The position numbers and the translations under genes were made by a program. A DNA stretch of 32,000 bases from Candidatus Heimdallarchaeota archaeon (lineage in GTDB: Archaea > Asgardarchaeota > Heimdallarchaeia > Heimdallarchaeales > Heimdallarchaeaceae): NCBI GenBank assembly GCA_030668875.1, contig DAOVER010000029.1, positions 1 to 32,000 on the forward strand, in the 5' to 3' direction. The notes below the pieces were generated by a model. The model had not been told where the DNA came from, did no database searches, and worked only from the letters and a program-made list of their open reading frames with translations. Below, piece by piece: positions 13,704-19,090 of this stretch; the first letter of the stretch is position 1, and every line of letters begins with the position of its first letter.

Positions 13704-14732
13704 ATGACGGATAGAAAAAAGAAACAAGTTAATTTTTTGGACAAAGTACTTGGATCTGTAACAAAGGAGGGAGGAGGTGGAGTATTTATCGCATTTGGAG
13801 AAGAAGAATCGAAACGATTACGTTCAGAACAAAGAAAAACTTATGGAGATTCTGGATTAAAAATTGGCTCTATGCTCACATACAAAATTGATGACTATAT
13901 AGCAATAATTGAAGGAGAACTAAAGAATAATACACTTGAAGATGAAGAGAGATCTGCAAAAACAGAGACCCTATTATTTGCTACTAACATCAAAGTTTCC
14001 TTACAAAGCTTGAATATTTCAGACATTCAAATTCAAGAAGTTAACAATGAACTAAGATTATCATTTGATTCTTTAGTTCAGAACAAATATCCCTTCTTCT
14101 TACAGTTTTTTATCAGATATGAACGAGATGGAAGTATAGTTCTAGATGGTTTATTCAAGAAAATTCAACCCTTTAAAGTTTCAATAAGATCTTTTGGGGA
14201 TGAAGCTAAGAAAGAAAATCAAGACAGTTTTGAAAATCTTAATTCTCTATACATTATAAATTCTAATGATGATTTGCTTGTTAAATTTTTAAACCAGAAT
14301 CCAAGAATAACTCAGAAATTAATTGCTTTATCTTCAAATCTTGAGCTAATCATGATTAATCGGAAATACTTTGTTGTAACATTTTACGATGCTAATTCTG
14401 TTATCAAAGTTATTGATTTACTAGGAGAACTCTATAATGAGTTTGTGATACAAAAAACTGGTTTGAAATCTGTAACTTACATCAAATGTTTCAATTGTGG
14501 AGAGGAGCTTGATGAAAATGACGAGAAATGTCCTAACTGTAATGCTAATAGACCTAGATGTGCTGTCTGTCTGTTAGACTTACAACTTGCTGAAAAAGAA
14601 GAAGTTGTTCAAATGCCTTGTTGTGGAGTTTATGGACATAGGGAACACGTTCTGATGTGGGTTGAAAGAGCTCATACTTGTCCAAATTGTAAATCAAGAC
14701 AGATTGATTGGTTGGATGAGTTAAATCGTTAA
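13704..14732 (+). CDS. Zinc-ribbon plus RING-finger protein (candidate E3 ligase or scaffold)
   Basis: C-terminal CFNC-x10-CPNC-x6-CAVC...PCC-x4-HREH-x3-W-x6-CPNC. Confidence 0.85.
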   Translation: MTDRKKKQVNFLDKVLGSVTKEGGGGVFIAFGEEESKRLRSEQRKTYGDSGLKIGSMLTYKIDDYIAIIEGELKNNTLEDEERSAKTETLLFATNIKVSLQSLNISDIQIQEVNNELRLSFDSLVQNKYPFFLQFFIRYERDGSIVLDGLFKKIQPFKVSIRSFGDEAKKENQDSFENLNSLYIINSNDDLLVKFLNQNPRITQKLIALSSNLELIMINRKYFVVTFYDANSVIKVIDLLGELYNEFVIQKTGLKSVTYIKCFNCGEELDENDEKCPNCNANRPRCAVCLLDLQLAEKEEVVQMPCCGVYGHREHVLMWVERAHTCPNCKSRQIDWLDELNR

Positions 14733-14875
14733 GTTTAGCGCACCTAGTGAGAATCTGATAATAGATAATTGGGTTCAAGGGATGAAAATTATTGCTACTT
14801 CAATTCATACTTTCTAATTTTTTTAAAGTTGAGAGAGCAAATTCTTTTTTAGTAAGTTATATATAACATCACTTG

Positions 14876-16267
14876 ATGTGTGATACAGTTGTTGCTGTTG
14901 GTAAGTCTACCAAAGATGGTAGTGTTATTTTAGGTAAAAATTCAAATCGTGTTCCTAATGAGGTTCATAATGTTGAATATGTTGAAGGGAAAAAACATGG
15001 AGCTAATGCTAATGTCAAATGTACTTATATCACAATCCCCCAAGTAAAAGAAACATATGATGTTCTTCTACTGAAACCATTCTGGATATTTGGTTGTGAA
15101 ATGGGTAGTAATGAGTTTGGTGTAACTATCGGTAATGAAGCCGTTTGGAGCAAGGAACCCATACGCGATACAGGTTTGCTTGGTATGGATATGATGCGCT
15201 TAGCATTAGAGAGATCAAAAACTGCAAAAAAAGCCCTTGAAATAATAGCAGAGTTACTGGAGAAGTATGGTCAAGGTGGTCAATGTACTTATGGTGTTAA
15301 AGGTCGTGATTACCATAATTCTTTCATAATTGCTGATACAAAAGAAGCTTGGATTTTGGAAACAGCTGATAGATTTTGGATAGCTGAGAAAGTGAAAGGA
15401 ATACGTACAATTTCAAACACTCTTTCGATAGGTAGTGATTATGACTTAATTCATCCAGAGTTAATAGACCATGCAATCAAGAAAGGTTATTGTAAGAGTA
15501 AAGATGACTTCCATTTTGCTAATAATTTCATACCCAAATTCCGTATATATCATGCTATAAAAGAGTCTCAACCTAGATCGCAATATTTTGCAAAGGGCTC
15601 TGATCGACAACAATGTACTACAGCTCTTCTCTTAAGAAACAAGGGTAAGATAACTCCAGAAGACGTTATGGAAGTTCTTAGAAATCACAATCTCAAACCA
15701 GAAGAAGAAGCTACTTGGTCTGCATCAAAAGCTTCAGCTAAGAGTCCTTGTCAACACGCAACTGGTATGACAGTACCTAGTCAGTCAACTGGGTCTATCG
15801 TCTCTCACCTGAAAAAAGTCATCCAAGTTCACTGGGTAACCGGTACATCAGGCCCATGTACAAGCACCTTTAAACCTGTATTCTTACCTAAAGTAGGATT
15901 CAGTAAAAAACCTATCCTGGGAGATGAAAAGTACAATGAAAAAGCTCTCTGGTGGCAACATGAAAAACTTCACAGATTGGTTCTTTTAGACTATCAGAAA
16001 AGGTTAGGAACATACAAAGAAGATCGAGACAAATTTGAGAAAAAATATGTTAAAAAAGTAAACACAATTCTCAAAGGTTTATCAGGAAAACCAACAAAAG
16101 CTGATTTAACAAAAATGAAGAAGGTTACAACAGATTCGTTTAAGGAAAGTCAAAAGTTAACTGATGAATGGATTAATAATATAGTAGATCTTCCAATTGA
16201 AACAAGTACAGGTGTACTTTATCGAAGATTCTGGAATAAATATAACAAAGTTGATGGTTTAAAATAG
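14876..16267 (+). CDS. Peptidase C69/secernin-like Ntn-hydrolase dipeptidase
   Basis: MCDT N-terminus (Cys2 nucleophile; ATG 14876 rather than TTG 14873), GKNSNR, WIFGCEMGSNEFGVTIGNEAV, LLGMDMMRLALER, YHNSFIIAD. Confidence 0.9.
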   Translation: MCDTVVAVGKSTKDGSVILGKNSNRVPNEVHNVEYVEGKKHGANANVKCTYITIPQVKETYDVLLLKPFWIFGCEMGSNEFGVTIGNEAVWSKEPIRDTGLLGMDMMRLALERSKTAKKALEIIAELLEKYGQGGQCTYGVKGRDYHNSFIIADTKEAWILETADRFWIAEKVKGIRTISNTLSIGSDYDLIHPELIDHAIKKGYCKSKDDFHFANNFIPKFRIYHAIKESQPRSQYFAKGSDRQQCTTALLLRNKGKITPEDVMEVLRNHNLKPEEEATWSASKASAKSPCQHATGMTVPSQSTGSIVSHLKKVIQVHWVTGTSGPCTSTFKPVFLPKVGFSKKPILGDEKYNEKALWWQHEKLHRLVLLDYQKRLGTYKEDRDKFEKKYVKKVNTILKGLSGKPTKADLTKMKKVTTDSFKESQKLTDEWINNIVDLPIETSTGVLYRRFWNKYNKVDGLK

Positions 16268-16276
16268 GAGAAAGAG

Positions 16277-16353
16277 TGGCGTAAACTCAGAGGTGCCGTT
16301 ATTTACATTGCCAATTGGCTCAAACGGTAAAACCTTCATCATAATTCACGCCA
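16277..16353 (-). ncRNA. Box C/D kink-turn small RNA (candidate sRNA/snoRNA-like)
   Basis: Minus strand reads UGGCGUGAAU-U-AUGAUGA (box C, 16342-36)-AGGUUUUACCGU-UUGA (D'-like)-GCCAAUUGGC-A-AUGUAAA-UAACGGCACCU-CUGA (box D, 16290-87)-GUUUACGCCA. It has a 10-bp terminal stem with two G-U pairs and an exact 3-nt kink-turn bulge. Confidence 0.75.
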
Positions 16354-16370
16354 TTTAACAAATTACTATT

Positions 16371-16380
16371 GTATAAAATA
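16371..16380 (-). promoter_or_regulatory. TATA-like box for the C/D RNA
   Basis: Minus-strand TATTTTATAC; its centre is roughly 22-25 nt upstream of the 5' end of the terminal stem. Confidence 0.45.
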
Positions 16381-16429
16381 AGTTTATCTTTGCGATAAGT
16401 TTAATTTTTATGAATTCTGTATCATAGAT

Positions 16430-18181
16430 ATGAAAGAGAGTATCAAAAAGTTTTTAGAAAAAGAATATCTCGAAACTATACGAATTCATCAACTTCGTCC
16501 GCTATTTGAGAGGTATTTAAACTTAAATTCTGATTTAGTTGAAAAATATGAAAAAGAATATTCTCGTCCCAAAAATTTGATAGTATCTGCTCTATATACA
16601 GCTGATTATATTATAATGTCGTCGGAAGTGAAACTTGAACTTGAAGATGATGCTAGAAGGAAAGAAATAATCGAATTCTGGATAAACCTGAATATAACTA
16701 ATGATGAAATGTGGTACGAATTAACTTACATTGTAGCTTTTTCATATAGAATTGCTTCGATGCTTAGGAAACGTTACTATTATTTAATGGATAGAGGAGT
16801 TGCTAAGCAAATTGCAGCAGCATTGGTAGCTGATTACTTTGTTCGACACCACTTGGAATACACTTCTGACAAATTGAATATCATTCCAACTTGGTGGGTT
16901 GTTTTTCTAATGGAAACAGCTATGTGCCAAACAATATTTTCCACAACTCAAAAGAAGTGGGCTAACATCCAAGAAATACTCCACTCTAATGAAATGGGTT
17001 TATTATCACACATAATTGCAAATAACTTCATAGGGGAAACTATAGGGGAACCCAATCCAGCTGTCCCCATACCATACTTCAAAGATTCTTCTATTTTCTA
17101 CTATGCCACATGGGTTCAAGACACAGTTAAAAAGAATCGATTTGAATCACTGTTACCTGCTAAGACTTCAGCACAAATTCATAAGGAGTTCAAGAAATGT
17201 ACTCCGTTATTGGATTCAAATAATCCACACATCTTAAAATACATGAGACTTGCAGGAAAATACTCGATTTCTTCTCCTGAGATAAATTTCATTATTGCAA
17301 ATTCCCAAATTAATGATGCTGAAGGTTGGATTGGATTGCTTACACCTTTAGATGATATCAATATGAAGGAAATAGAATCCCTATTAAAACTTAAACTAGA
17401 TGATCTGAAAGCTCTTGAAAAATATGCAAAACATCTCCCAACTATTCAAGTTCTTCAGAGGCAAAAGGAAGAACGAGAAGTAGTTGAAGAGATAATAGAA
17501 AAAGAAGAGAAAAAAGGATTCTTCAAAAAGCTATTTTCAGGTTTTAAAAAGAAGAAGAAAAAAGCAGAGCCGAAGAAAGCTGTAAAAATACCACAATCAA
17601 TAGATAAGTGGTATCGATTGGTTTTAGATGAAATACTCATTGCCAGCGTTTCTGGTATAGGACTAGGGTTAGAGATTTATGATTCATATCGTGAGGATAA
17701 TTTCGTAATTAGTGGATTAATTGAGTCGGAACAAAAAGAAACTCAACCCACAGTTTTCTATTCAGAAGCGACTGTCGCATTCCCATCTGAATTTCTAGAT
17801 CCAATTATTAGCCTTATTGAAGTAGGTAAATTGTTTATAGCAACAATAAAAAATGTAGAAACGATTTCAGTTATTCCTGAAGAAGCGTTTTATCGTGATA
17901 AGCAAGATGTAGGTCTCTATAGACTTGTAGAATTTGTTTTCGGTGAAAAACTATTAGTTGGTATATTAGCAGAAAAACAAGCTAGAACAGCTATGACACT
18001 CGCAAGGTCAGAACCAACTTATCAGAGAAGATCACTTCAAAGAAAAGCTAACGAATTCGTACATGCGAGAAGAGTCAACAAAACTGACGACGTAGGTAAA
18101 AGAACACTTTCAAGAGAGATAAATTGGGATACTGTGAAATTAAGTTACGAGGAAAAACCATTGTTTTACAAGAAAAAATAG
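16430..18181 (+). CDS. Hypothetical protein (583 aa) with an internal amphipathic/polybasic motif
   Basis: Long uninterrupted ORF with no recognised family. Contains KKGFFKKLFSGFKKKKKK. Confidence 0.8.
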   Translation: MKESIKKFLEKEYLETIRIHQLRPLFERYLNLNSDLVEKYEKEYSRPKNLIVSALYTADYIIMSSEVKLELEDDARRKEIIEFWINLNITNDEMWYELTYIVAFSYRIASMLRKRYYYLMDRGVAKQIAAALVADYFVRHHLEYTSDKLNIIPTWWVVFLMETAMCQTIFSTTQKKWANIQEILHSNEMGLLSHIIANNFIGETIGEPNPAVPIPYFKDSSIFYYATWVQDTVKKNRFESLLPAKTSAQIHKEFKKCTPLLDSNNPHILKYMRLAGKYSISSPEINFIIANSQINDAEGWIGLLTPLDDINMKEIESLLKLKLDDLKALEKYAKHLPTIQVLQRQKEEREVVEEIIEKEEKKGFFKKLFSGFKKKKKKAEPKKAVKIPQSIDKWYRLVLDEILIASVSGIGLGLEIYDSYREDNFVISGLIESEQKETQPTVFYSEATVAFPSEFLDPIISLIEVGKLFIATIKNVETISVIPEEAFYRDKQDVGLYRLVEFVFGEKLLVGILAEKQARTAMTLARSEPTYQRRSLQRKANEFVHARRVNKTDDVGKRTLSREINWDTVKLSYEEKPLFYKKK

Positions 18182-18289: not shown

Positions 18290-19090
18290 ATGAATGACCA
18301 TAATACTAATGCAAATTTCTTCTTCTTACGAGGAAAAGACGGGTTCCTTAAAGGTAATTATCAGAATTGTATAAAGGATTTAATGTATGCACAAGAGATG
18401 TTTACAACCATAGGTAATAAAGAGAAATCTGCAGAAAGTTCACTTCTTTTAGCTTCAGCATACTTTAACATCACTCGTTTTGATCAATCAAGATTGATGT
18501 TTGATCGAGCATATTCTAGGTTCAAAGAACTTAACAAACTAGTTAAATTAGGAGAATGTGCGTTAGCTCTTGGAGAGATCTATAAGGAAGAAGGGGAGTT
18601 CAAGCGAAGCAGACAGTATCTATTAGAATCAATACATATTTTTACTAATCTAAAAGATACAGAAAAACTAGCTGATTCATGGAAGCACCTAGCTGAAGCA
18701 TATCAAATGGATCTTTCAGATTCACATGATCATCAAGTTAGTATTGTTGAAGCTTACAGAACAGCACTTGGTTATTATAAAAAAGCAAAAAATAACAGAA
18801 TGAAAGCAGAATGCGAATTTGATTTGGGGCATGTATTAATCTCCCAATCTAATTTTTCAGCGGCTTTGAAATTTCTCTCTCCTGCATTCAACTACTTCAA
18901 GGAAATAAATAATCACGATAATGTAATTACAATTGCAATACTAATTGGTCGAATATATTTTGAACTTAGGAAAAAACCTAAAGCTAAGGAATACATGTTC
19001 GAAGCTATAAATCAGATGAAAAAGGCTAATTATAATCCTGAAAAGATTGGCTCTGTACAGAATACAATTGCTTCCATGTTTGCAGGTTAG
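18290..19090 (+). CDS. Tetratricopeptide-repeat protein
   Basis: Repeating helical units of about 40 aa (LASAYF...FDRA; LGEIY...GEF; LGHVLI...NFSAAL; IGRIYF). Confidence 0.8.
   Translation: MNDHNTNANFFFLRGKDGFLKGNYQNCIKDLMYAQEMFTTIGNKEKSAESSLLLASAYFNITRFDQSRLMFDRAYSRFKELNKLVKLGECALALGEIYKEEGEFKRSRQYLLESIHIFTNLKDTEKLADSWKHLAEAYQMDLSDSHDHQVSIVEAYRTALGYYKKAKNNRMKAECEFDLGHVLISQSNFSAALKFLSPAFNYFKEINNHDNVITIAILIGRIYFELRKKPKAKEYMFEAINQMKKANYNPEKIGSVQNTIASMFAG

Follow-up and report, generated by a model that had tools for sequence, protein, structure and literature searches.

A candidate box C/D double-guide RNA in a Heimdallarchaeota genome with predicted targets in helix 18 of 16S rRNA

Archaeal box C/D sRNAs carry guide spacers of about 12 nt next to a box C reading RUGAUGA and a box D reading CUGA, and they address the target nucleotide at position N+5. 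In the 16S rRNA of archaea, helix 18 is recognised as a hotspot of methylation (PMC4644070; also PMC7994747), and four crenarchaeal sRNAs, Sac sR115, Pca sR28, Tte sR114 and Iho sR21, have been described as double guides for it (Dennis et al. 2015, PMC4644070). In all four the D′ guide is directed to E. coli A535 and the D guide to G515, and selection for coupled guide binding was inferred by the authors (PMC4644070). The uridine next to the decoding base G530 is a site of guided methylation in eukaryotes: G530 is equivalent to yeast G577 and human G626 (PMC5187420), so that U531 corresponds to yeast U578, which is methylated (Um578) via snR77 (PMC5344495), and to human U627, which is methylated (Um627) via SNORD65 (bioRxiv 10.64898/2026.05.13.724956). 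In our full-text searches of the literature, no paper dealing with Asgard box C/D guide RNAs turned up. Here we describe a well-supported and previously unannotated sRNA family in Heimdallarchaeia that has a defined predicted target in the decoding centre.

Layout of the candidate RNA and its locus

The MAG studied here (G000) has 3.23 Mb in 99 contigs and a completeness of 92%, and the window, that is, the whole stretch of 32,000 nucleotides analysed, is its contig C17. By direct reading, we found a box C/D RNA candidate of ~75 nt on the minus strand at 16277-16353. It takes up the intergenic space that separates a Peptidase_C69 gene (14873-16267, +) from a gene for a 583-aa protein (16430-18181, +), lying just past the peptidase stop codon and overlapping neither coding region. 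The flanking protein genes are the same in all loci compared, although in the genera furthest away among these their products are no more than 41-58% identical. No Pfam match was found for the 583-aa protein, which is syntenic with the sRNA across the family and whose first ~312 residues are 41-62% identical in more distant genomes. By their Pfam matches, the neighbouring genes at 13704-14732 (+) and 18290-19090 (+) encode a protein with zinc-ribbon and RING-finger domains and one of the TPR/SNAP-like type; the scores for zinc ribbon and RING are slightly under the Pfam curated cut-offs. Zinc-ribbon/RING and TPR/SNAP-like domains are of the eukaryote-signature type that is typical of Asgard genomes.

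The initial annotation had described a minus-strand box C/D element with a 10-bp stem, strand-specific G-U pairs, a 3-nt U-A-U bulge, a spacer, UUGA, a mini-stem and AUGUAAA, and all of these could be read directly. The terminal stem is formed by a 5′ arm, UGGCGUGAAU (16353-16344), seen in the sequence and in folding and covarying among relatives, and a 3′ arm, GUUUACGCCA (16286-16277), supported by the same three kinds of evidence; the conserved core of the 5′ arm in the genus alignment is GCGUGAAU (16351-16344). Two of the ten pairs, G16347-U16283 and U16344-G16286, are G-U pairs that would become A-C mismatches on the plus strand. The 5′ arm is followed by the bulge nucleotide U16343 and box C, AUGAUGA (16342-16336; together 16343-16336), the 3-nt bulge being made up of U16343 and the opening A and U of box C. 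The GA of box C stands opposite the GA of box D (CUGA, 16290-16287, invariant in the genus) in a predicted kink-turn geometry. Between the two boxes lie, in order, a 12-nt D′ guide spacer, AGGUUUUACCGU (16335-16324); a D′ box, UUGA (16323-16320), of the genus form U-N-G-A; a hairpin, GCC-AAUU-GGC (16319-16310), apparent in both sequence and folding; a single nucleotide, A16309; a degenerate C′ box, AUGUAAA (16308-16302); and an 11-nt D guide spacer, UAACGGCACCU (16301-16291). We read the hairpin as supplying the canonical stem to a kink-turn inside the RNA, where a K-loop would otherwise stand. In AUGUAAA a U sits where the sheared A-G pair needs an A, so that L7Ae binding at C′/D′ may be weak.

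Upstream of the stem is a BRE/TATA-like element, AAACTTATTTTATA (16372-16385, minus strand), centred ~25 nt 5′ of the conserved stem, in agreement with the TATA-like box at promoter distance that had been proposed before. An A/T block (GAAAGTTTATTTTT / GAATGTTAATTTAGG) is kept at equal distance in the alignment of all genus homologues, and we infer that the block at 16385-16372 is the promoter. On the other side, the stem is followed by a T-rich tract, CUCUUUCUCCUAUUUU (16261-16276, minus strand), which runs into the last part of the convergent peptidase gene and is a possible oligo-T terminator; the aligned homologues likewise have T-rich tracts 3′ of the stem.

Conservation, covariation and strand

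Folding of the minus strand gave a z-score of -3.2. The plus strand folds as well (-19.4 kcal/mol, z -2.5), and the position of the element directly behind the peptidase stop codon would also suit a hairpin that terminates the peptidase transcript on the plus strand, or a motif that arose by chance, with no RNA gene at all. To weigh this reading we turn to the homologues. BLAST found the element in other genomes of the genus and, partially, in other genera of the family. A covariance model (R1) built from 21 genus sequences matched G000 in a single copy (92.6 bits, E 1.4e-19) and had a match in 28 of the 29 genomes of family f1. With strict filters R1 did not detect the homologues of family f5, which an exact guide-pattern search did detect: across 399 genomes of the phylum, this pattern was present in 27/29 genomes of f1 and 11/22 of f5. 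The few pattern matches outside these two families were without C/D features and lay in coding-like sequence, and we rejected them as homologues.

The terminal stem and the internal hairpin both covary in the syntenic loci, where the initial annotation had suggested looking for covariation. In the genus alignment, 4 of the 10 stem pairs changed on both sides, including a GC<->AU exchange at 11:9, with no unpaired cell, and 22 stem cells are G-U pairs that are feasible on the minus strand only. G-U occurs at four stem positions in many homologues, where the plus strand would read A-C, and this fixes the strand as minus. The 10-bp length of the stem that had been reported holds for G000 itself; conservation in relatives is limited to the inner 8 bp, the outer two pairs being specific to G000. 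The D′-C′ hairpin varies between 3 and 8 bp among relatives.

The boxes and spacers are conserved to different degrees. Among the 21 genus sequences the box C core UGAUG is invariant, and box D CUGA and the 11-nt C′-D spacing are also conserved. In the D′ box the GA is invariant, the box reading U-N-G-A in the genus and CUGA in f5. The genus consensus of the C′ box is AUGAAAA; AUGUAAA is found in part of the genus only, and f5 has AUGAUGA. The degenerate C′ pointed out earlier is thus true of the G000 copy and is not a trait of the family, and we interpret it as local drift and not an ancestral feature. The proposal of a eukaryote-like guide also fails to hold up, since the spacers have the archaeal lengths of 12 and 11 nt and most genus members have a near-canonical C′/D′, f5 a canonical one. 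Within the D′ spacer, GGUUUUACCGU is invariant in the genus and in f1, and GGUUUUACCG is retained in f5 as well. One genus relative, G012, has a second, diverged copy (C117:15373-15457, +) ~2 kb from the first, in which the D spacer AACGGCACCU is kept and the D′ spacer is different; this looks like guide diversification after duplication.

A genome-wide scan that asked for the two boxes, C and D, together with a stem of 5 bp or more returned 13 matches as against 1 in the reversed genome, and the RNA studied here had the longest stem. A loose snoscan-like scan returned 128 matches against 57 in its control, which is too noisy for counting sRNAs, and a strict sRNA pattern left seven candidates only. 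The Infernal/Rfam search that had been suggested for the element returned no family at gathering score, the best matches below it being generic C/D-box models (SNORD19B, 22.8 bits, E 0.19). Chance or a plus-strand terminator hairpin is hardly credible given the A-C mismatches that the plus strand would carry in many homologues, the invariance of box C, box D and both spacers across genera, and the single match in the reversed genome. These comparisons argue instead for a genuine and conserved RNA gene that has no Rfam family.

The genome also encodes the expected protein partners. A fibrillarin gene (C36:109088-109756, 307 bits) adjoins a Nop (Nop5) gene (C36:109954-110631, 212 bits), and two L7Ae-family genes are located on C58 and C9; with all three kinds of gene present, C/D RNP machinery is encoded in the genome.

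Predicted targets in helix 18 of 16S rRNA

As no rRNA genes are assembled in the MAG, targets were read from the 16S and 23S rRNAs of a genus relative (G001) and three family relatives, in all four of which helix 18 of the 16S rRNA reads GGCUGGUGCCAGCCGCCGCGGUAAAACCAGC. According to the established secondary structure of 16S rRNA, 511-516 and 535-540 form a helix, and the GCUGGU and ACCAGC of helix 18 are perfectly complementary; we took the helix-18 pairing from this model and complementarity, folding of the isolated helix not having returned the native structure. The D′ spacer matches 16S 5′-GCGGUAAAACC-3′ (E. coli 527-537) by 10 Watson-Crick pairs and one G-U pair, taking in CGGUAAAACC of the 530 loop, and the duplex has an energy of -17.1 kcal/mol. 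Of shuffled spacers, 1.2% had 10 contiguous pairs anywhere in 16S and 23S rRNA. The N+5 position of this guide is an A-U pair at U531, the nucleotide that follows the decoding base G530 on its 3′ side, and nearly all homologues in the two families, f1 and f5, share this register. A search of rRNAs and tRNAs for targets, also proposed in the initial annotation, yielded a predicted D′ target in 16S rRNA; for either spacer, no target was found in the relatives' 23S rRNAs or among 24 tRNAs predicted by ARAGORN.

The D spacer is predicted to bind the opposite strand of the same helix. Its GGCACC is complementary to GGUGCC of 16S rRNA (E. coli 514-519), with a duplex energy of -12.9 kcal/mol and N+5 at G517. 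This pairing is short, 6 bp in G000, 7 bp in species whose spacer ends in A and 6-7 bp genus-wide, and 9.6% of shuffled spacers had 6 bp near the D target. In the other genera of f1 the D spacer is AACUGGCAC, which forms 7-8 bp with 514/515-521 and places N+5 at C518, and in f5, where the internal hairpin is longer, it is CUGGCA or GCUGGCA with N+5 at C518 or C519. The second guide always pairs with the 5′ strand of helix 18, in a register that varies by lineage (G517, C518, C519). In two f5 genomes (G078:C106 and G080:C65) the guides are swapped, so that D′ is preceded by the CUGGC guide and D by the GGUUUUACCG guide, and a 4-nt K-loop linker stands in for the hairpin, which makes these RNAs a permuted form of the family. 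That the two guides stay together through every rearrangement argues for coupled action on helix 18.

Outside the rRNA, the full-length target of the D spacer (GGUGCCGUU) has few exact matches in the genome, all inside ORFs, and we judged them to be chance. One of the places noted is an 11-nt perfect D-spacer complement in a 150-aa ORF (C93:4379-4389, -), for which ~0.6 is expected by chance. A bipartite GGUGCC-ucua-CGGUAAAACC in a 387-aa ORF (C68:53835-53860, +) is probably chance too.

The two spacers are also complementary to each other (AGGU/ACCU and CCGUU/AACGG), as had been observed before, and the minimum-free-energy fold pairs them together. Along with the tight synteny with both neighbour genes, this fold would suit a non-guide, L7Ae-binding structural or regulatory RNA whose spacers are closed as a hairpin, such as one that controls the peptidase gene or the 583-aa gene in cis or as an antisense RNA. 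The guide-guide duplex is weak, however, at -7.0 kcal/mol, and the spacer-rRNA duplexes are far stronger. The spacer-spacer pairs never covary in the genus alignment and are broken in G011/G012 (AAAGG), and in the other f1 genera the complementary motif is interrupted as AACUGG. The spacers moreover remain invariant while the flanking genes diverge, which indicates an invariant target in trans, and the RNA lies clear of both coding regions. The complementarity has a simpler source: the GGU/ACC part exists because the spacers bind 514-516 and 535-537, paired strands of helix 18, and two further spacer-spacer pairs come from the GG and CC directed at C518-C519 and G529-G530. We saw no sign of selection for a closed state of the spacers in these sequences, and the earlier suggestion of a guide that "must open" to act is not borne out. 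More generally, targeting both strands of one rRNA helix offers a simple account of self-complementary spacers in double guides. The fit of the D′ spacer to the 530 loop, in an N+5 register kept in two families, likewise tells against the non-guide RNA that the initial annotation had offered as its second option. A guide role is very likely on these comparisons, and a non-guide L7Ae-binding RNA is highly improbable.

Taken together, we consider it likely that this sRNA is transcribed in its own right from the minus strand and is a double guide on helix 18 with U531 as its predicted site of 2′-O-methylation. Motifs, conservation, covariation, strand, complementarity, register and protein genes are computed features, and on them we base a proposal for transcription, RNP assembly and methylation. 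In this proposal, an sRNA of ~75 nt would be independently transcribed from the minus strand and would assemble with the L7Ae, Nop5 and fibrillarin of the genome. Its D′ spacer would bind the 530 loop together with the 3′ strand of helix 18 (527-537), placing U531 at N+5 for 2′-O-methylation. The D spacer would bind the 5′ strand (514-519), where it could direct a second methylation (G517 in the genus) or, more likely, would mainly keep the helix open for the D′ guide.

The weaker features of the D half could also mean that only the C/D-D′ half, or neither half, is catalytic, with the RNA serving 30S assembly mainly by pairing to the two strands of helix 18, which would guide the way the 530 loop and pseudoknot fold, and the D spacer being accessory. 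The D spacer retains its pairing to the 5′ strand throughout, although this pairing is short (6-8 bp) and the N+5 register shifts among lineages; C′ is degenerate in the clade of G000; and coupled binding of nearby rRNA sites by two guides has been argued for by Dennis et al. (PMC4644070). Full conservation of box D and of its 11-nt distance from C′ is nonetheless what an active site would show, and f5 has canonical C′ and D′ boxes. We regard such a single-guide or chaperone RNA as unlikely, though it is the alternative that we take most seriously, and favour the double guide.

Comparison with known guide RNAs

Guides of the Sac sR115 and Pca sR28 type appear to be the closest known systems. 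Like the RNA studied here, the crenarchaeal sRNAs have a D′ guide on the 3′ side of helix 18 and the 530 loop and a D guide on the 5′ strand; this likeness is drawn from their description, and they differ in their sites (A535/G515 as against U531/G517, or C518/C519 in relatives) and in their thermophile hosts, whereas our RNA belongs to a mesophilic Asgard archaeon.

A second point of reference lies in the same genome. On the contig that also carries the fibrillarin and Nop5 genes, we noted a compact canonical sRNA (C36:8467-8514, +) that reads AUGAUGU-12 nt-CUGA-AGA-AUGAUGA-11 nt-CUGA, both spacers of which match 16S rRNA, at positions 1356 and 1429 (G001 numbering), with 10 and 9 contiguous pairs. 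Common to the two RNAs are a box C and a box D, putative D′ and C′ boxes between them, spacers of ~12 nt and guides complementary to rRNA. The compact sRNA has a 3-nt K-loop linker, whereas the RNA studied here has a covarying hairpin of 3-8 bp, a terminal stem of 8-10 bp and, in its clade, a degenerate C′. Since a compact K-loop sRNA occurs in the same genome, the D′-C′ hairpin cannot be ascribed to the organism as such. As judged from the alignments, the true architectural peculiarity of the family is this covarying hairpin, which would give a stem-closed kink-turn and not a K-loop.

In eukaryotes, snR77 and SNORD65 address the very uridine predicted as the target here, which lies 3′ of the decoding G and is universally conserved. 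The spacing of the RNA, at 12/11 nt, is archaeal and sets it apart from these two, and cmscan at E <= 10 gave no match of the RNA to the snR77/SNORD65 Rfam families. Convergence on a functional hotspot is as possible an explanation of the likeness as common descent. The stronger proposal, that the sRNA is the direct archaeal counterpart of snR77/SNORD65 and that eukaryotes inherited guided U531 methylation from an Asgard ancestor, is improbable in our view; if it were true, the hairpin-closed internal kink-turn and the decaying C′ would represent an early step towards the asymmetric layout of eukaryotic snoRNAs. The family raises a testable question, namely whether the archaeal lineage nearest to eukaryotes already relied on a guide RNA for this modification of the decoding centre. 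Apart from its hairpin and its predicted site, the RNA is an ordinary representative of a well-known class, with its nearest likeness in the crenarchaeal double guides.
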